DNA of 11,251 bases from a virus: the UHGV virus genome UHGV-1558646; one strand, given 5' to 3'. Within the stretch, counting starts at the first letter, position 1. Every line of letters begins with the position of its first letter. The position numbers and the translations under genes are program-made. Under the pieces are notes generated by a model, which did not search any database, had not been told where the DNA came from, and was given only the letters and a program-made list of their open reading frames with translations. Below are positions 1,973-11,196 of the stretch, piece by piece.

Positions 1973-2269
1973 TCAGTCATTACTGATAGCGCCATAGCGT
2001 GAGCGGTAATTACGCAGGCGCGGGTCGATATATTCAGGGAAGTTGGTATATGTGGCTTTGCGGAATGGTCGGATTGATGTTTCGTTTATTCGGTCTTTTT
2101 CCTGTTTTTCTGCGAGTTGTATATCGCGTCGGTACATCCGTTCTGCTTTTGTTTCTGGTGTCAGAGCAAGAAACGCGTCGAAATTGTTTTTGATATTTTC
2201 CAGCACCTCCGCCTTGGAGCTACCGGAGCAGTTGCGCGGGTCATCCGCACCATACAGAGGCGCTGGCAT
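1973..2269 (-). CDS. Hypothetical phage early protein (98 aa)
   Basis: ORF track 1973..2269. ATG at 2269 with a weak SD (AAGG). Co-oriented, 23 nt downstream of the stop of the preceding gene. Confidence 0.5.
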   Translation of the reverse strand: MPAPLYGADDPRNCSGSSKAEVLENIKNNFDAFLALTPETKAERMYRRDIQLAEKQEKDRINETSIRPFRKATYTNFPEYIDPRLRNYRSRYGAISND

Positions 2270-2292
2270 AATGGGAGCCTTATTTTCAGTAA

Positions 2293-2880
2293 TCAGAAAG
2301 AAGGGTAATCGTTCTGGCTGTAACCATAATCATCTGCATGATTCTGGCTTACGTTTTTAGAGCGATTGTCTTTATCTTTGAGATGGGCAACCATGTTGGT
2401 GATAGTTTCTGGTTGCTTGCCTTCTGCCTTTTCTTTAAGGGTTTGACCTGTTTGTGCAATAAACGGGATGCGTATTTCCATCTGATAGCTGTCTGCACCA
2501 GTCCTTTTGTTTGTGGTTAATACTTTCTGGAGCACTAACCCGATTTTCTTTCCATGAAATTCAGGTGCAACAAATTTACTGGCGGAAACCATATGTTGCG
2601 TTAACTGCTTAATCCCAACACACCCCATCATGGCATGAACGACATTTGCACCAAACTTGTTTTCCGTTCCGTCATTTTTCTGAACACAAACGCTAAGATA
2701 CTGGATTTTACGTCCGTCGTCGGATTCGCCAGAAAACTCAATAAATTTGGCTCCTTTTTCTGATTGCTTTAGTTCTGCTTCAGTAATGGTAATGATATGA
2801 GCGCCAGTTTCGTTAATAAAACCACCTTGCCCTGCGGTCAGTGCTGCTTCTTCGTTATAAGTAAAAATCACGTTGCTCAT
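2293..2880 (-). CDS. Sak4 partner protein, putative ssDNA-binding/accessory protein (195 aa) with acidic-aromatic C-terminal tail ...DDYGYSQNDYPSF
   Basis: ATG at 2880 overlaps the TGA of the upstream Sak4-like gene (ATGA). C-terminal tail is reminiscent of the SSB tip (DDDIPF). Assignment is by position and tail, not by recognised OB-fold motifs. Confidence 0.55.
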   Translation of the reverse strand: MSNVIFTYNEEAALTAGQGGFINETGAHIITITEAELKQSEKGAKFIEFSGESDDGRKIQYLSVCVQKNDGTENKFGANVVHAMMGCVGIKQLTQHMVSASKFVAPEFHGKKIGLVLQKVLTTNKRTGADSYQMEIRIPFIAQTGQTLKEKAEGKQPETITNMVAHLKDKDNRSKNVSQNHADDYGYSQNDYPSF

Positions 2881-3557
2881 GCGGCGTTTTCCTTAATTTG
2901 ATGAACATTATTGATGCCGTAGTAATCACAAACAGTGGCATCGACGAAAGAGAGATCGTTATCAATCTCATTGGAATCAAACATTCCCATTGGGGATTTA
3001 ACAGTGTCTGCACCGTTGTTTTTTGTAGTGAAAAAGAACTGGTCATCACGGGTAAGGGTGCGAAGAACTATAGTAAACATGCCTTCGACAGTGATTTTCT
3101 CGTCCAGCATTTTGCCGATAGTTTTCATTTTCACACGCCCCATAGGGGTTTCTTCGGTGTGTGCAAGAAAATAGACTCTCAGGTCATCAGGTGCATCCTG
3201 TGCAGCCTTAATCACCTCCCATGCGTGGCGGCCTATCTCAGTGAATTTATCAAACGATTTTTCTTCTGAGCGGCGCATAAACTCATTGCTCATCACATAC
3301 TGGAAGTCATCAACAATAACGATTCTTTTCCCGTATTCGTGAGCACGCTTAATTACGGCAACTATTACGTCCCATTTGTCAGTGGTAACTACGGTTCCTT
3401 TTTTTGCTCTGGCATCCCATGCCAGCCATTCTTTTGATTTAAATGGTAGCGGCTTGCCTATTGGTTTTATAAGTATTGCTTCCTCTGGATTGATATTTCT
3501 CATGCTGGTTGATTTTCCGGTGCCAGATTCACCGAGTATTAATGTTGCAGTTCCCAT
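2877..3557 (-). CDS. Sak4-like core-only RecA-fold ATPase (AAA_24 family) recombination protein (226 aa)
   Basis: Walker A GESGTGKST at residues 8-16 and Walker B-like RIVIVDDF. Size and N-terminal P-loop are typical of phage Sak4/AAA_24. SD GAGGTGA before the ATG at 3557. Sits where lambda has the Red genes. Confidence 0.7.
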   Translation of the reverse strand: MGTATLILGESGTGKSTSMRNINPEEAILIKPIGKPLPFKSKEWLAWDARAKKGTVVTTDKWDVIVAVIKRAHEYGKRIVIVDDFQYVMSNEFMRRSEEKSFDKFTEIGRHAWEVIKAAQDAPDDLRVYFLAHTEETPMGRVKMKTIGKMLDEKITVEGMFTIVLRTLTRDDQFFFTTKNNGADTVKSPMGMFDSNEIDNDLSFVDATVCDYYGINNVHQIKENAA

Positions 3558-4204: not shown

Positions 4205-4231
4205 CCAAAAATAAAGGCCGATTATGCGGCC
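4205..4231 (-). terminator. Intrinsic terminator-like hairpin directly after the 207-aa gene
   Basis: Minus strand reads GGCCGCATAATCGGCC followed by TTTATTTTTGG. Stem overlaps the TAA stop at 4222..4224. Confidence 0.5.
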
Positions 4232-4845
4232 TCGGAAGGAAGTCCAATCATCTTATTCAAATCTTCTACCCGTAAAGCAGGAAGTGCTGTACTTGCTTTA
4301 TCTGCTTCTTTTGGTAGCAATTCTTTGCTTTCAGGCCAAACTTCAATAAGTCGCTTAACTGTTGTGACTGATTTCAAAGCAGCCCATACATTTGATTCGA
4401 TATCCTTTTTCTTGGCTTCAAGTTTTTGTTGCAATGCGCAGATTTCATCAAACCTTTTTGTTATTTCGTGTTCTGCGTCAAACATGCATTTATCTTTGAT
4501 CGGAGTAGGGAGCAATATATCTTTGCCGTTGCCGTCTTCCCCATATGAATGCCATCCAACCCTTCTGCCAGATACAGTCAGATAAATTGAAGTAGAACTA
4601 ACATCGTATGAGTAAAATGAACATCCCATCTTTCCAAGTTCTTCACTTATAGCTACCAACTTGGATGATAACTGATCCACTTCCTCAGTTTTCTTTTTAC
4701 CGCCAAACGCAATAACTCTGGCGTCAAGTGCAAGCTGGTTCTTTAACTTTGTTACTTCTTCAAGTTCAGTGAACACCCCGGACTTAATTAAAGCGTTACG
4801 AGCGATTTCCTCTTTCATTCTCGTAGTTAAGCGGATTGATGACAT
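4222..4845 (-). CDS. Hypothetical protein of unknown function (207 aa), AT-rich
   Basis: ATG at 4845 with SD GAGAGGAA 5 nt upstream. The ORF-track start at 4905 is a TTG overlapping the N stop. Translation starts MSSIRLTTRMKEEIARNALIKSG. No recognisable motif. Composition is visibly more AT-rich than the flanking genes. Confidence 0.6.
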   Translation of the reverse strand: MSSIRLTTRMKEEIARNALIKSGVFTELEEVTKLKNQLALDARVIAFGGKKKTEEVDQLSSKLVAISEELGKMGCSFYSYDVSSTSIYLTVSGRRVGWHSYGEDGNGKDILLPTPIKDKCMFDAEHEITKRFDEICALQQKLEAKKKDIESNVWAALKSVTTVKRLIEVWPESKELLPKEADKASTALPALRVEDLNKMIGLPSEAA

Positions 4846-4906
4846 ATTAATTCCTCTCAAATAAGTGGTTTGCTGCCTAATTTCATTTTCTGGCGACCAA
4901 CACAAG

Positions 4907-5290
4907 TCACCTCGCCGTCAGTTGTTTGTATTTCCGGTAGCCTGCCGCGTAAATGGCTACGTTTGGAAGACATACACCAGTTTCTGGTTGCTTATGTCCA
5001 AACTCATTCGCGTACACAATGGCTGCTCGCTCCAGATTGCGTCTGTATTCTTTCTGTTGCCAGATCACGTCCTGTGCCATGAACTTAATTGGCTTAGCGT
5101 CTTCTATGCGCTCAGGCGTTTCGTGAGTACCTTTAGCCTGAATCTGCGCTCTGCTTAGAGTAGGGCGGTGTAATACTTCTGAACTTATTGCTTCTTCGCG
5201 GGCCAGCACGCCGTTAGCTAATGCCTTTGCCTTTAAACGCTCACGACGACGAGAACGTGAATTGCCTTTGAACTGAGTTCTGCGTGTCAT
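4907..5290 (-). CDS. N: N-type transcription antitermination protein, P22 gene 24-like (127 aa)
   Basis: N-terminal arginine-rich motif GNSRSRRRERLKAKALA and C-terminus LPNVAIYAAGYRKYKQLTAR resemble P22 N as I recall it. ATG at 5290 with SD AGGAGG at 6-nt spacing; the ORF-track start at 5356 lacks an SD. nutL boxB lies upstream. Confidence 0.7.
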   Translation of the reverse strand: MTRRTQFKGNSRSRRRERLKAKALANGVLAREEAISSEVLHRPTLSRAQIQAKGTHETPERIEDAKPIKFMAQDVIWQQKEYRRNLERAAIVYANEFGHKQPETGVCLPNVAIYAAGYRKYKQLTAR

Positions 5291-5419
5291 ATGGAACCTC
5301 CTGATGAACTTTGGCGGTGAATACAGCCGGGCGACTAACTCCGGTCGCGTAATCATTGCAAAGCGCCTCCGCCGAGAAGGTTAGCTTCTGCATTCACCCC
5401 AAAGTTCACTTTGGTTATT

Positions 5420-5481: not shown

Positions 5482-5511
5482 GTGCGTCCTGCTGATGACG
5501 ATAATAATGAA

Positions 5512-5542
5512 CCAATAGTTCGACATTATCAAGAACTATTGG
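5512..5542. promoter_or_regulatory. 31-bp palindrome CCAATAGTTC-N11-GAACTATTGG
   Basis: Perfect 10-bp inverted arms at 5512..5521 and 5533..5542 in the PL control region, between the moron terminator and nutL. Confidence 0.3.
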
Positions 5543-5716: not shown

Positions 5717-5743
5717 CAAATAAAACCCGGCTCGGTGGCCGGG
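5717..5743 (-). terminator. Intrinsic terminator closing the repressor/moron transcript
   Basis: GC-rich stem CCCGGC / GCCGGG (5726..5731 and 5738..5743) followed on the minus strand by TTTTATTTG, about 14 nt after the TAA of the 341-aa gene. Also T-rich on the plus side. Confidence 0.55.
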
Positions 5744-5756
5744 GTTAGATTTTCTG

Positions 5757-6782
5757 TTACGGGCGAGTGATGGTTGATGCGTTTCCGTTTTCTATTACAC
5801 CTGCTCGTATCGTGTAGCTTCCCAAGATTTTTACTGTCCTGTTTTCTTTCATTGCATCAAACAGTATGGCGATCTCGTCTTTATCATCTATGAACGACGT
5901 GTCCACCGAAACAGGGAAACTGTCTTCACTAGATGGTTCGCGGCAGCTTAGGGTTATCTTTTCCGCAGTACGCTTGATTCCATCAATGACTAATTCAAGG
6001 TTTCTTTCTTCTTTTTTTGCTTTTTCGATAGGGTTCTTGATTAGTTCGTGGATTTCTTTGTTAGACAGTTCAACTGTGCTTGCGCCTGATATGACAATTT
6101 TGTCAGCATCAGACGCGCCTTTTAATACCCCTGTATACGCTTTTGCAGTATGCTCTTGAATCCCTTCGGCGCGCTCTACTGCATCTATGCCCGCTTTAGC
6201 TCTAATCGCCTCAAGCATTCCGTCCCTTAATATCGTCATGCGCTCGTTTTCTGATTTAATCTTGGCTTCTTCGAGCTTTGTTTCTTCTTGCTTGACTTCT
6301 ACTTCGGCTTTTTTCTCTAAGTATGATGTACCAACCCATGCACCGCCTATAACGGTGACAGCAAACAAGAAGCATAATGTTTTTTGGCTAGGACTCATAC
6401 CGTGTGTTACCTTCTCAAAGGCTTTACCGAATGCTTCAAAAAGCTCTGTTAATGCAGCAAGTATATCAGTACAACCTTCATTAATGGTAAAGATGATCTC
6501 TGCTTCCTCTTTATCTTTACCAGTTAACCTTTGAAGGTTGTCAGTTTTATATTTTATTAGTGTGAAAACTTTATAAATTTCAGTCTGAAATTCGCATAAA
6601 CCCTGAGCTAGAGGAGATGGAAGCGTTCCGTTGTAGCGAGAAGGATCACCATAAATCTTAAAATTCACATTATTGAAGAGGTCTAACTTGATCCTGTCGA
6701 TAGTGATCTCTTCGCCACCATCTAACCTTGCAAACAAAGATTCAATGTCGTCCAGACTTGAAACATTAATAATATCTTTCAT
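5757..6782 (-). CDS. Unknown membrane-anchored coiled-coil protein (341 aa) in the rexAB-equivalent slot; candidate exclusion/abortive-infection gene
   Basis: ORF track 5757..6782. ATG at 6782 with SD GAAGGTG. One predicted TM helix (TLCFLFAVTVIGGAWVGTSYL, about residues 136-156) followed by a K/E-rich coiled-coil. AT-rich relative to the repressor and replication genes. 80 bp downstream of the repressor stop on the same strand. Confidence 0.7.
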   Translation of the reverse strand: MKDIINVSSLDDIESLFARLDGGEEITIDRIKLDLFNNVNFKIYGDPSRYNGTLPSPLAQGLCEFQTEIYKVFTLIKYKTDNLQRLTGKDKEEAEIIFTINEGCTDILAALTELFEAFGKAFEKVTHGMSPSQKTLCFLFAVTVIGGAWVGTSYLEKKAEVEVKQEETKLEEAKIKSENERMTILRDGMLEAIRAKAGIDAVERAEGIQEHTAKAYTGVLKGASDADKIVISGASTVELSNKEIHELIKNPIEKAKKEERNLELVIDGIKRTAEKITLSCREPSSEDSFPVSVDTSFIDDKDEIAILFDAMKENRTVKILGSYTIRAGVIENGNASTITRP

Positions 6783-6862
6783 TACAACACCTTCGGCACA
6801 ACCTTGCTAGTTAAATTAGTGATTATAAAAATTGGATACTTACCAGCTATGTGACGATGAAG

Positions 6863-7570
6863 TCACGAACTTTTCAGCCACTCCCTTGCCTCGATGTCAT
6901 CCAGATGGCGAGATTGCTTCAGAATACCAGCCACATACTCCACCTTTGCTACTTGATGATAAGGCAACGTTATTGGCCTGTGGTCTTGGTTGATGCTTGT
7001 AAATTGGTATTCTCCATCTCTGTCATAGCCAAGAACCTTAATCATGTTGTGTCCTTCAACGGTTCTGACAAACACCTCATCACCCGGGAATACTTTGGTG
7101 TTAGGCTCAATGAGTACATATTCTCCTGATTTTATTCTGGGCCACATGCTGTCTCCTTTCACACGAAGGCCAAAGGCATCTGGATCATCGCTATAAATTT
7201 TGAGCCACCCATCGCGCTCTTCGGTCATCTCGATGGCACCATCAACACCAAGAATTGCCTCACCAACCACGCGCACTAACCCTTTTTTTAATTTGCCAAC
7301 AAATGAAAGAGTATCTTCATCATTCGCTCCATTTAACGAAGTGCCGTGCTGAAGCCAAACAACATCAACGTTTAGAAATTTCGCAAGCGCATTCATTTTT
7401 TCCTGACGCGGTAAAGACTCAGCATTAAACCATTTGCTAACGCCTTTGGACGAAAGAGAAAGGGCACGGGCTATAGCCATTCCCCTACCATGTTCATCAA
7501 GACCAGCTTCTTTACAGGCTTGCGCTAGCCGCTGGGCGAATTCTTTGCGCACTTTTTCATTCTGAACCAT
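6863..7570 (-). CDS. cI: Prophage repressor, cI-type (N-terminal HTH plus C-terminal S24 LexA-like autopeptidase, 235 aa)
   Basis: S24 signature VKGDSMWPRIKSGEYVLIEP...GDEVFV with a downstream Lys (NMIKVL). N-terminal HTH-like segment. Divergent from cro across a 78-bp operator region. Not a lambda cI or P22 c2 sequence match. Confidence 0.85.
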   Translation of the reverse strand: MVQNEKVRKEFAQRLAQACKEAGLDEHGRGMAIARALSLSSKGVSKWFNAESLPRQEKMNALAKFLNVDVVWLQHGTSLNGANDEDTLSFVGKLKKGLVRVVGEAILGVDGAIEMTEERDGWLKIYSDDPDAFGLRVKGDSMWPRIKSGEYVLIEPNTKVFPGDEVFVRTVEGHNMIKVLGYDRDGEYQFTSINQDHRPITLPYHQVAKVEYVAGILKQSRHLDDIEAREWLKSS

Positions 7571-8333: not shown

Positions 8334-8477
8334 ATGCGAAAAACGCAGGAAAATAAACGCGTTAATCACCGAAAAGATGTGCTACGTGACCAGTTTTATC
8401 AGGGAGTTAATCCAGCAATAGCTGTGCCACTGAGAGAAATACTTAACAGGTACAAAACTTCGGAGAAGTCAAAATGA
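8334..8477 (+). CDS. Small basic hypothetical protein (47 aa)
   Basis: ATG at 8334 with SD GAGG at 7-nt spacing. TGA overlaps the ATG of the replication initiator (ATGA). The ORF-track version (8169..8477) overlaps cII in another frame, so the internal start is preferred. Confidence 0.4.
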   Translation: MRKTQENKRVNHRKDVLRDQFYQGVNPAIAVPLREILNRYKTSEKSK

Positions 8478-9205
8478 GCATGAATCTTATGGCTAAGGCC
8501 ATGAATATAAAGGTTGGCAACCCACTGAGAAAACTGGTTCTGATTAAACTTGCCGATAACGCCAATGATAATGGCGAATGCTGGCCTTCATATCAACATG
8601 TCGCTGACCAGTGTGAGGTGAGCAGATCGACAGTAAAAAGTCACATTAGGGCACTGGAAGAGATGGGTCTTTTGAAAAGGGAATGCAGAAGAAAAGGAGA
8701 GCTTAACCAGTCAAACGTTTTTTATCTGACGCTGGATAATGCACAACAAATCCCACCAGAATCAGGTGGGGCAGGAGCTGCCCCCAGAACCTATCACTCT
8801 TTTGAACCAGTCAATGAACCTAAAAACATTATGTTCGAACATGTCCGAACGGAGTGGGAAAAAACTCCTGACCGTCACGAAGAAACCGACAAGGCATTCG
8901 AGGAAATATTCTGGTGTGCAGGCATGCGGAAAGCCGGGAAGAAAAACGCAGCTTCAGCATTCAGAACACAGTTCAGGGAATGGCGTAAAACTACCAGGGG
9001 TACGGCAAGCGAGTTTGCCACGATGCTGGCAGAAGACATCGCATGCAGGAATGGTAAGCAGTTCGGATTCGACAGGTTGTTACCATCGAGCTACCTGAAC
9101 GGTCAACGCTGGAACGACGAGAAGCCAGAAACTATTCAACCACAATCCAAACCATCATCCGCAATCACCGTATCGAAAACTGGCTACGTGTTTTTCGACA
9201 GGTGA
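8474..9205 (+). CDS. Replication initiator / replisome organiser, O-like, with N-terminal HTH (243 aa)
   Basis: N-terminal LVLIKLADNANDNGECWPSYQHVADQCEVSRSTVKSHIRALEEMGLL resembles the HTH domain of phage replication initiators. Low-complexity linker PPESGGAGAAP. Located in the lambda O position. Confidence 0.7.
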   Translation: MSMNLMAKAMNIKVGNPLRKLVLIKLADNANDNGECWPSYQHVADQCEVSRSTVKSHIRALEEMGLLKRECRRKGELNQSNVFYLTLDNAQQIPPESGGAGAAPRTYHSFEPVNEPKNIMFEHVRTEWEKTPDRHEETDKAFEEIFWCAGMRKAGKKNAASAFRTQFREWRKTTRGTASEFATMLAEDIACRNGKQFGFDRLLPSSYLNGQRWNDEKPETIQPQSKPSSAITVSKTGYVFFDR

Positions 9206-9208
9206 ACC

Positions 9209-9316
9209 ATGAAATCCAGAATCAAATCGTTACTTATCGCTGGCTATAACCATGGCTGGCTTAGTTCTGCATTCGTTGAGTTCTGGTTTAACCGTCTCGA
9301 TCTGAGGTCAGCGTAA
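9209..9316 (+). CDS. Possible small ORF (35 aa) between the initiator and the primase
   Basis: ATG at 9209 follows AGGTGA. Translation MKSRIKSLLIAGYNHGWLSSAFVEFWFNRLDLRSA. Its TAA overlaps the primase ATG (TAATG). Below the ORF-track size cutoff. Confidence 0.3.
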   Translation: MKSRIKSLLIAGYNHGWLSSAFVEFWFNRLDLRSA

Positions 9317-11196
9317 TGACTCCAAGTGAACTGAGCGACCTGCTTTGGGCGCAGGTTGACAGGGTGGCTCCGCACCTGTTGCCAAACGGCAAGAAAGAGG
9401 GGCATGAGTGGGTTGCCGGTAACGTTAACGGTGACAAGGGAAACAGCCTTAAGGTCAACCTTAGCGGCAAGAAAAAATGGGCTGATTTCGCTGAGGGAGA
9501 CGGCGGTGACATGCTTGATTTGTGGATGGCATGTCGTGGAATTAACCTGCATCAGGCTATGCAGGAAGCGAAAGCATTTCTCGGTATCAAGGATGACGAT
9601 CACCATTTCGATGCCAGACGTGAGAAGAAATTCTCCAGACCTGATCGCAAGAAAATCGCCAGTTACGTTACCAGAACAGAATCCCATCTTGAGTACCTGC
9701 AATCGCGTGGCATATCGCCAGAAGTCGTAAAGCGCTACGAGGTTGTCAGCGGCAAGGTGTGGAATGGAGAGCGGGAACTGGATGCTCTGGTGCTTCCGTA
9801 CAAACGCGATGGTGAGTTGTTGCAGGTCAAGCGAATCAGCACTGAGCGCCCGGACGGGAAGAAAGTCATTATGGCAGAAGGTGATTGCGAACCTTGTCTG
9901 TTCGGATGGCAGGCTCTGGACGCTGGCGTGAGGGCGGTTGTACTTTGCGAAGGCGAAATTGATTGTATGAGCTATGCGCAATACGGCATCTCGGCGTTAT
10001 CCGTGCCGTTTGGTGGCGGGAAAGGCGCTAAGCAGCAGTGGATTGAGTTTGAGTATCACAACCTCGACAGGTTTGAGGAAATATTCATCTCGATGGATGT
10101 TGATGATGTTGGTCGTGAAGCCGCAAGGGAAATCGCAAGCCGACTCGGTGAACATCGTTGCCGTCTTGTTACTCTGCCGTACAAAGACATCAACGAATGC
10201 CTGATGAACGGTGTTACCGAGGATGAAATCTGGCAGTACATCGGCACGGCATCCTACTTCGATCCTGAAGAACTCTACAGCGCGCGAGAGTTTTACCAGG
10301 ACACTATCAACGCTTTCTACGGCAAGCAGCAGTATCTGTTTAATCCACCGTGGGAATCTCTGGCAGATAAATTCCAGTTCCGTGAGGCCGAGTTGACGCT
10401 GGTCAATGGTGTGAACGGTCACGGAAAAACGGAGGTTGTCGGGCATATGGCACTTGAGGCAATGCGTCAGGGTGTGAAGACGTGCATCGCGTCACTTGAG
10501 CTGAAGCCTGGTATTCTCCTTAAGCGCCTTACCCGTCAGGCGACGTGCTGCAAGATGCCGCCAGTGCTGGAAATTGACTCTGCATTTAAATTTTATGACG
10601 AAAGACTTTGGGTGTTTGGCCTGACCGGAACGGCGAAAGCCGACAGGCTGATCGAAATATTCGACTACGCTCGCCGCCGATACGGTATCCAGTTATTCAT
10701 CATCGACAGCCTGATGAAATGTGGCATAGGCGACGATGACTATAACGGGCAGAAGGCGTTTGTTGACTCGATTTGCGACTTCAAAAACAAAACAAACTCC
10801 CACGTCATTCTCGTTACTCACTCGCGAAAAGGAGACAGCGAAGAAAAACCAACCGGGAAAATGGACGTAAAAGGCTCTGGAGCGATAACAGACCTGACAG
10901 ACAACCTTTTTATCATCTGGCGTAACAAGGCTCGCGAGAGAGCGTTACAGAGAGTTCAAAGCGGTGAACAGATGTCAGAGAAGGACGAACAGCTACTGGT
11001 GTCTCCGGCATCTGTTTTGTTGCTTGAAAAACAACGTAACGGTGAAGGTTGGGAAGGTGGTATCCCGTTGTTCCTTGACGAGCAATCGCACCAGTTCCTG
11101 CAACTTGAATCAGGATCTCCATATAGCTACATCGCCAATATGCCGAAATCGGAATATGACGAGGCGTGGAGACAGGAAAACGTGACGGAGTATTAA
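9316..11196 (+). CDS. Bifunctional DNA primase (TOPRIM) / RecA-fold DnaB-like replicative helicase (626 aa)
   Basis: TOPRIM motifs VVLCEGEIDCMSYAQ (catalytic Glu) and ISMDVDDVGREA (DxD). Helicase Walker A NGVNGHGKTEV and Walker B LFIIDSLMK. SD GAGGT before the ATG at 9316. Confidence 0.85.
   Translation: MTPSELSDLLWAQVDRVAPHLLPNGKKEGHEWVAGNVNGDKGNSLKVNLSGKKKWADFAEGDGGDMLDLWMACRGINLHQAMQEAKAFLGIKDDDHHFDARREKKFSRPDRKKIASYVTRTESHLEYLQSRGISPEVVKRYEVVSGKVWNGERELDALVLPYKRDGELLQVKRISTERPDGKKVIMAEGDCEPCLFGWQALDAGVRAVVLCEGEIDCMSYAQYGISALSVPFGGGKGAKQQWIEFEYHNLDRFEEIFISMDVDDVGREAAREIASRLGEHRCRLVTLPYKDINECLMNGVTEDEIWQYIGTASYFDPEELYSAREFYQDTINAFYGKQQYLFNPPWESLADKFQFREAELTLVNGVNGHGKTEVVGHMALEAMRQGVKTCIASLELKPGILLKRLTRQATCCKMPPVLEIDSAFKFYDERLWVFGLTGTAKADRLIEIFDYARRRYGIQLFIIDSLMKCGIGDDDYNGQKAFVDSICDFKNKTNSHVILVTHSRKGDSEEKPTGKMDVKGSGAITDLTDNLFIIWRNKARERALQRVQSGEQMSEKDEQLLVSPASVLLLEKQRNGEGWEGGIPLFLDEQSHQFLQLESGSPYSYIANMPKSEYDEAWRQENVTEY

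Follow-up and report, generated by a model that had tools for sequence, protein, structure and literature searches.

A predicted single-helix membrane protein encoded downstream of cI in a 933W-immunity prophage is a probable single-gene defence or exclusion determinant

The 11,251-nt virus genome UHGV-1558646, the whole of which is referred to here as the window, covers the immunity and early genes of a lambdoid prophage with 933W-type immunity. The CI repressor that it encodes is identical at 235 of 235 residues to CI of the Shiga-toxin phage 933W. Immediately downstream of cI, on the same strand, lies a gene for a protein of 341 amino acids (aa), which is the subject of this analysis. Its ATG at 6782, taken from the list of open reading frames (ORFs), is preceded by a Shine-Dalgarno sequence, and an 80-nt spacer without a predicted terminator separates the gene from cI, in line with the placement given in a preliminary description of the region. 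From the sequence and genomic context presented below, we regard this gene as a probable new one-gene system by which the prophage provides defence or exclusion; it would be a 'moron', i.e. cargo carried in the immunity operon of the prophage.

A scan of the spacer called neither a promoter nor a terminator on the minus strand, and the spacer did not fold better than shuffled sequences (z = -0.48). The preliminary description had suggested that a TATAAT hexamer marks a promoter of the gene's own. The hexamer is indeed present at 6827..6822 on the minus strand, but by our own reading the -35 match is just 2/6 and the promoter scan was silent; lacking an acceptable -35 element and a promoter call, this candidate was rejected. 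On the other side of the gene, a GC-stem/U-tract terminator (5743..5726) begins 14 nt past the stop codon. The gene had been described as flanked by the repressor stop and its own terminator. The terminator is there, but because it is located in backbone common to 933W-type prophages, outside the cassette described below, we assign this predicted signal to the operon and not to the gene. The homologous position of the 933W record is annotated 'tM; putative terminator for pM transcript'. A PL-like promoter lies beyond the terminator at the positions of OL1/OL2, which, like that of nutL, were transferred by offset from an annotated 933W-type immunity region. These positions assign the gene to the pM-cI-tM transcript and exclude it from the PL operon. 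This operon structure predicts that the gene is transcribed together with cI in the lysogen, where transcription would start at the maintenance promoter and end at tM, as for lambda rexAB and the 933W stk module. The features are listed in Table 1.

Table 1. Genes, signals and predicted protein segments at the locus, in window coordinates (pLDDT, predicted local distance difference test; OB, oligonucleotide/oligosaccharide-binding; AF2, AlphaFold2)
Feature	Position	Strand	Basis or remark
cI repressor (HTH_3 + Peptidase_S24)	6863..7570	-	Pfam; first gene of immunity transcript
Spacer between cI and the 341-aa gene, 80 nt	6783..6862	-	Holds GAAGGTG (6794-6788) and a lone TATAAT (6827-6822)
Gene for the 341-aa protein	5757..6782	-	341 aa; RefSeq WP_042199492.1; PHROG 6191
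Predicted intrinsic terminator, CCCGGC-CACCGA-GCCGGG + UUUUAUUU	5717..5743	-	Terminator scan and fold; equivalent of 933W tM
PL-like promoter, TTGATA-17-CATTAT	5504..5532	-	Promoter scan; downstream of terminator, at 933W-type OL1/OL2 positions
N antiterminator	4907..5356	-	Pfam N_peptide E = 1.5e-14, phrog_271; first PL-operon gene, boundary of cI-N slot
Nmad5 gene	4222..4905	-	Pfam E = 1e-70; directly downstream of N
Mosaic cassette, 1,086 bp	5754..6839	-	57-nt leader, ORF and 3 nt past stop; differs from 933W-type prophages
Predicted N-terminal alpha/beta domain, residues 1-130 (about 1-125 in model)	6393..6782	-	pLDDT ~80-95; acidic; probably cytoplasmic
Predicted transmembrane helix, residues 135-155 (TLCFLFAVTVIGGAWVGTSYL)	6318..6380	-	Kyte-Doolittle 1.65, uncharged
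Predicted K/E-rich two-helix hairpin, residues 166-222	6117..6287	-	AF2 H166-196 and H199-222
Predicted C-terminal OB-fold barrel, residues 256-339	5766..6017	-	beta1-3, helix, beta4-5; acidic

Comparison of the window with the 933W-type prophage of E. coli N32 by blastn gave 97.9% identity up to 5753 and 98.8% identity from 6840 onward, with unrelated sequence between these breakpoints (5753/5754 and 6839/6840). In N32 and 933W the same slot contains four genes, encoding a DUF3024 protein, a RuvC-like protein, Stk and a small ORF product, and the 933W record gives the order pM, cI, L0084, L0083, stk, L0081, tM, nutL, N. As the sequences agree on either side and are unrelated inside, we conclude that the gene constitutes a 1,086-bp cassette substituting for the four-gene module. 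Stk is reportedly activated by HK97 infection and mediates exclusion (PMC3681748), and the cI-N interval, where rexAB and bstA are found, has been described as a hotspot of mosaic diversity (PMC8585504). The gene is dispensable, since 933W and N32 share cI yet carry other slot contents. Its DNA was found to be 100% identical in phages PhiR12_1, PhiR12_2, PhiR12_4 and PhiR12_5 and in E. coli LZSFT34.

Horizontal acquisition had previously been argued from a markedly AT-rich composition. The GC content of the gene (40.7%) is lower than that of cI (45.7%), N (49.9%) and the replication genes (47-51%), as described, but the deviation is modest. The Nmad5 gene ('nucleotide modification associated domain 5'), at about 40% GC (40.1%), is as AT-rich as the 341-aa gene, and cro (42.2%) is close to it. 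The cassette as a whole (40.2%) falls in the lowest 1.2% of segments of the same length but falls short of the window mean (44.5%) by only 1.4 standard deviations. Horizontal exchange is argued far more strongly by the sharp mosaic breakpoints than by base composition.

Homology searches agreed with the earlier statement that the protein belongs to no recognisable family. No Pfam match was obtained up to E <= 10, also when N- and C-terminal pieces were searched separately, and none in NCBIfam; sequence searches of the PDB with the single sequence and with two profiles returned nothing significant. The 5,027 defence-protein models of PADLOC-DB v2.0.0 gave no match at E <= 1, and 62 distant relatives gave just two isolated weak matches to PADLOC models. 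The protein did match PHROG 6191 ('unknown function') over its full length (E = 1.3e-98, residues 5-340 against positions 8-333 of the 338 in the profile). An exhaustive profile search extended the family to at least 878 clusters at 50% identity (E <= 1e-3), 440 of which reached E <= 1e-10, nearly all of them 310-360 aa long and matched over their full length. Every one of the 65 relatives recovered from Enterobacterales in a word-indexed search is annotated 'hypothetical'. Relatives occur in pathogens of animals, plants and insects.

A shorter allele of 245 aa, 96-97% identical to the 341-aa protein and carrying an internal in-frame deletion, was found on 53 contigs (P0039; at 2543-3280 of locus L077 in E. 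coli STEC1585). It follows a different LexA-family repressor and is either decayed or a shortened functional variant.

A functional name attached to the family is 'T2SS GspM containing protein', after the type II secretion system (T2SS), in GenBank records within PV340541-PV340554 (PV340541 and PV340549-PV340554). It is borne by the identical gene of PhiR12_1 to PhiR12_5 and by the homologue of mEp332, which is 42% identical to the PhiR12 allele. GspM and, by prediction, the 341-aa protein are both bitopic, a single membrane helix connecting a cytoplasmic N-terminal part to a domain in the periplasm. They differ in that the modelled C-terminal fold of the 341-aa protein is an OB fold, whereas the GspM fold is ferredoxin-like. 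The GspM label was rejected, as there was no match to Pfam T2SSM at E <= 10 and hhalign against E. coli GspM gave a probability of 0.25%, confined to the membrane helix. The depositors' product name risks spreading as a misannotation.

We then consider the positions of the homologues, for which the preliminary description had proposed a check for neighbouring prophage repressors. An HTH_3 + S24 repressor lies directly upstream on the same strand in 36 of the fetched loci, 34 of these being among the 51 loci from IMG/VR, and in two more loci an HTH_3-only repressor is directly upstream. This order holds for homologues just 30% identical and recurs in the phages mEp332 and phi458 and the Moraxella phage Mcat17, as well as in a prophage of Dickeya and further ones of E. 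coli. The repressors concerned belong to at least 17 unrelated lineages at 70% identity, and the homologues that follow them range down to 21-30% identity. When pairs of loci encoding proteins at least 88% identical to each other were compared, their repressors were less than 60% identical in 40 of 72 pairs; conversely, in one pair the repressors were 99% identical and the downstream proteins only 50%. The gene has thus been exchanged independently of the repressor yet recurs in one slot, which points to a selective advantage of being expressed together with the repressor. The family is a widespread, unannotated occupant, from Escherichia to Moraxella, of the classical exclusion slot that otherwise holds rexAB, stk or bstA.

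Tight linkage to the repressor over many lineages could also reflect a function in the phage life cycle, such as induction, lysis timing, or membrane anchoring of the replication or immunity machinery, and a lysis cassette of holin and spanin genes does immediately precede one distant homologue. Against such a function, which we regard as highly improbable, stand the dispensability of the gene in 933W and N32, whose identical cI is followed by other slot genes, and the persistence of the in-frame deletion allele in Shiga toxin-producing E. coli strains. Moreover, the family occurs outside prophage regulatory regions. In Yersinia ruckeri the homologue is at the end of a Mu-like prophage, behind a DUF3024 gene, and in Proteus it is in an island. 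A 47%-identical Salmonella homologue, convergent with a gene for a polyvalent protein of about 2,900 aa (LPD5, LPD1, MuF_C, LPD38; minus strand from 7066 onward in loci L011-L013), lies at the extreme edge of a mobile element whose chromosomal insertion sites vary. A sub-family search yielded only 6 loci, in mixed contexts.

Outside the repressor slot, several homologues have established or candidate defence genes as neighbours. A complete type VI retron (RT_VI, E = 2e-88, with a helix-turn-helix gene) is directly upstream of the homologue at the genome end of Pasteurella phage Pmp14 (L079, 1138-3502), PD-T7-4 is directly upstream in two viral contigs (8e-85), and AbiD is 2.4 kb away in Proteus (6e-58). 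The fourth is the DUF3024 gene (113 aa), which matches the PADLOC candidate PDC-S43 (E = 2e-26). Pmp14 is an isolated phage, in which the retron genes are annotated merely as 'transcriptional regulator' and 'polymerase'. The DUF3024 gene lies between cI and the homologue in two viral contigs (L053, 4436-4771; L057, 4584-4925), upstream of the homologue in Yersinia ruckeri (L008-L010, 5596-5937), and first after cI in 933W, where it is L0084 (L066, 5580-5921); it could be a moron in its own right or a gene that often travels with the family. No partner gene was conserved beside the homologues in the fetched loci, and the 341-aa protein would therefore act alone or with host factors.

The protein has also been singled out independently. 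WP_042199492.1, from the ECOR assembly GCF_003334775.1, is listed as 'Predicted novel defense gene' in Table S5 of the DefensePredictor study, sheet 'uncharacterized_clusters' (Science 2026, PMC13092281), with a mean log-odds of 5.04 (standard deviation 1.13, range 3.76-6.53); the stringent cut-off of that method is 4 (PMC13092281). The same table gives no HHblits or Foldseek link of this protein to known defence proteins.

A full-length AlphaFold2 model built from a 33-sequence alignment had a pLDDT of 81 and a predicted template modelling score (pTM) of 0.69. The preliminary description had envisaged a motif-free N-terminal domain, one central transmembrane helix and a long K/E-rich coiled-coil C-terminal half. 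The single predicted helix stood: the only hydrophobic segment, residues 135-155, is uncharged, overlaps the modelled helix 131-146 and is conserved in position among 191 full-length relatives (median start 133; Kyte-Doolittle value of at least 1.5 in 83%), 156 of which have exactly one segment reaching 1.5. The coiled coil did not. Instead, the model gives a disordered linker (residues 152-167), the K/E-rich hairpin at 166-222, a small beta/alpha element and the OB barrel at 256-339. Residues 157-260 contain 19% K+R and 21% D+E. The barrel is assigned as an OB fold because it has five strands, with a helix placed between the third and the fourth, and because it matches OB proteins in structure. 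A fold search with the full-length model returned only generic OB matches, for the C-terminus; the only near-full-length matches were two uncharacterised phage proteins, Q6NE06 of Leptospira LE1 and one of Myoviridae ctLIM9.

Nor is the N-terminal domain free of motifs; no other part of the family is as well conserved. In a set of 135 diverse members, whose median identity to the query was 21%, conservation per 10-residue block was 0.40-0.49 in the N-domain vs 0.25-0.32 in the C-terminal half. Only G45, Q66, L86, G103, M129 and A226 are at least 80% conserved in this set, and Y50, G52, G61, F65, Q66, E68, Y78, N82 and L83 are invariant among close relatives. The residues conserved in the 135 members form no catalytic signature, and an enzymatic effector was rejected as a candidate. 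The N-domain has a net charge of -8. The OB domain has an isoelectric point of 4.95 and is acidic in 74% of members, which makes a nucleic-acid-binding OB fold unlikely.

The flanks of the helix carry net charges of +0.7 on the N-terminal side and -1.1 on the C-terminal side, and the N-terminal flank is the more positive in 145 relatives vs 31. By the positive-inside rule, and because export of a 134-residue N-domain that lacks a signal peptide is improbable, the N-domain is predicted to be cytoplasmic and the hairpin and OB barrel periplasmic. Such a combination, in which the inner domain is conserved and the outer one varies, would be expected if an effector or scaffold were linked to a recognition module. 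The preliminary description had proposed a sensor-like cytoplasmic domain; the conservation of the N-domain and the variability of the C-terminal part fit recognition by the latter.

The exclusion-slot position, the synteny with repressors despite exchange, the defence neighbours and the independent machine-learning call make it likely, in our judgement, that the gene is an anti-phage defence or exclusion determinant of some kind. An exclusion or abortive-infection determinant in the rexAB-equivalent slot had been suggested at the outset; the context agrees with this suggestion, but the function, like the membrane topology and the stage of action, is something that we infer, and the mechanism is read from the modelled architecture.

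Several points weigh against this interpretation. The context arguments also fit other lysogenic-conversion functions, and just 6 of 5,426 complete E. coli genomes carry the gene, which is thus rare in this species. WP_042199492.1 is absent from the 118 cloned transcription units of Table S6 (PMC13092281), and by our count 10 of the 29 cloned units with log-odds of 3-7 in that table were protective; the prior for defence is about one third before the synteny evidence. No phenotype for the gene or any homologue was found in the literature searched, although an earlier test may exist. As to the structure, the hydrophobic helix is borderline (Kyte-Doolittle 1.65). Furthermore, residues 1-130 modelled alone lost confidence (pLDDT 63), and this result, together with the full-length pTM, raises the possibility that the N-domain and the C-terminal half might touch, which would conflict with their placement on opposite sides of the membrane.

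The gene could instead encode a lysogenic-conversion factor with no role in defence, i.e. an envelope protein with effects on the physiology of the host, its tolerance of stress, adhesion or colonisation, comparable to those of lambda bor and lom, and that is expressed from the immunity operon simply because this operon is on in lysogens. Cargo with predicted expression in the lysogen and a probable periplasmic OB fold would suit such a role, as OB folds also occur in the B subunits of AB5 toxins and in periplasmic metal or ligand binders such as SilF. The presence of the gene in pathogens of animals, plants and insects is likewise compatible with conversion, as is the validation of only about one third of comparable DefensePredictor predictions. 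We nevertheless consider conversion rather unlikely. Four different defence or candidate-defence genes adjoin the family in independent contexts, a known exclusion module is what the gene replaces, the DefensePredictor score exceeds the stringent cut-off, and variability such as that of the C-terminal half is typically seen in proteins engaged in an arms race.

The mechanism that we favour, to which we would give roughly an even chance of being correct, is exclusion at the level of phage entry or the cell envelope. The product would be a bitopic inner-membrane protein with its acidic, conserved N-domain in the cytoplasm, one transmembrane helix, and the variable hairpin and OB-fold domain on the periplasmic face, and its job would be to protect the lysogen, as a single gene, against other phages. 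The variable outer domain would bind a component of the incoming phage or of the entry machinery, with the outcome that genome entry is blocked directly or that a signal is passed to the conserved inner domain. The second outcome can be elaborated into a one-polypeptide outside-in phage sensor, in which the periplasmic hairpin and OB barrel would recognise tail-tip, ejection or tape-measure proteins and signal through the helix to an executing cytoplasmic domain. This would be a transmembrane signalling architecture of the ToxR/RseA style used in antiviral immunity, and we think it quite improbable. If phage entry is blocked or sensed from the periplasm, a new mechanism class of prophage-encoded immunity would be at hand, and exclusion by this family, if true, would explain part of the cross-exclusion among Shiga-toxin-type and other lambdoid phages. 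Isolated phages carrying family members exist (the PhiR12 series, mEp332 and phi458).

A late-acting, suicidal defence in place of entry blocking is also conceivable. In this case the protein would be an abortive-infection effector of the RexB/AbiZ type that responds to a phage cue by oligomerising through its helix (small-xxx-small, G147...G151), leading to collapse of the membrane potential and cell death. The slot shared with lambda rexAB, the nearly invariant glycine (G147) in the transmembrane helix, the AbiD and retron neighbours in other genomes, and the validated DS-34 system (AbiZ-like), a cI plus membrane-protein unit from an ECOR strain, are all in keeping with abortive infection. 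However, the protein has just one predicted membrane helix, hhalign comparisons with RexA, RexB and the DS-34 protein revealed no similarity (probability <= 0.3%), no adjacent sensor partner gene is conserved, and its variable domain, if periplasmic, would be badly placed for sensing an intracellular infection. Abortive infection therefore appears unlikely to us.

The plus strand of the window carries cro, cII, an HTH_36 initiator-like gene and a gene for a Toprim/DnaB-like primase-helicase; the last two, the helicase being 626 aa, form a replication module (8474..11196, +) that is not of the lambda O/P kind. In the PhiR12 phages and E. coli LZSFT34, the identical region containing cI and the 341-aa gene is joined to O/P-type replication genes, which therefore places a mosaic joint just right of cII (~8281). 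On the minus strand, 2293..3557 and 1973..2269 hold genes for an ATP-binding protein (Walker A GESGTGKST) and a DUF669 protein and an anti-RecBCD-like gene. The annotation of the homologous N32 prophage identifies the genes at 1973-3557 as a recombination/early-left module, replacing lambda exo/bet/gam.

Among known systems, RexA/RexB of lambda likewise lie between cI and a terminator, upstream of OL/PL, on the maintenance-promoter transcript (predicted for the 341-aa gene), and are dispensable cargo, RexB being a membrane protein. They differ in comprising two genes vs one, and RexB is a polytopic channel as opposed to one predicted helix with an OB fold; homology was rejected at hhalign probabilities of 0.15% and 0.14%. 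The stk module of 933W shares the slot, an identical cI and the same tM, and the cassette is its allelic replacement. Its products (L0084/DUF3024, L0083, the Stk kinase and L0081) are unrelated to the 341-aa protein, which has no kinase domain, and four genes stand against one.

BstA of Salmonella BTP1 and its relatives is, like our candidate, encoded by a single prophage gene just downstream of the repressor in diverse Gram-negative bacteria, where it acts in defence (PMC8585504). Unlike BstA, the 341-aa protein has a predicted membrane anchor, and it had no match in PADLOC, where BstA models are expected. DS-34 is a validated unit in which a prophage cI precedes a single protein of about 320 aa (AbiZ-like/DUF6161). 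This protein also has an N-terminal soluble part and a membrane segment, but its membrane region is near the C-terminus and it has no OB fold; homology was rejected at an hhalign probability of 0.1%.

Small inner-membrane moron proteins that block genome entry of incoming phages include HK97 gp15, P22 SieA and T4 Imm. The entry block favoured for the 341-aa protein would resemble theirs. The 341-aa protein is larger, and its conserved cytoplasmic domain of 130 aa is not obviously needed by a simple entry blocker. The modelled architecture, in which a conserved cytoplasmic domain is connected by one membrane helix to a variable, probably periplasmic OB fold, has no precedent among described defence proteins. 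Defence morons that share a transcript with cI are well known as a kind; the novelty for the defence literature lies in the protein family and its architecture.

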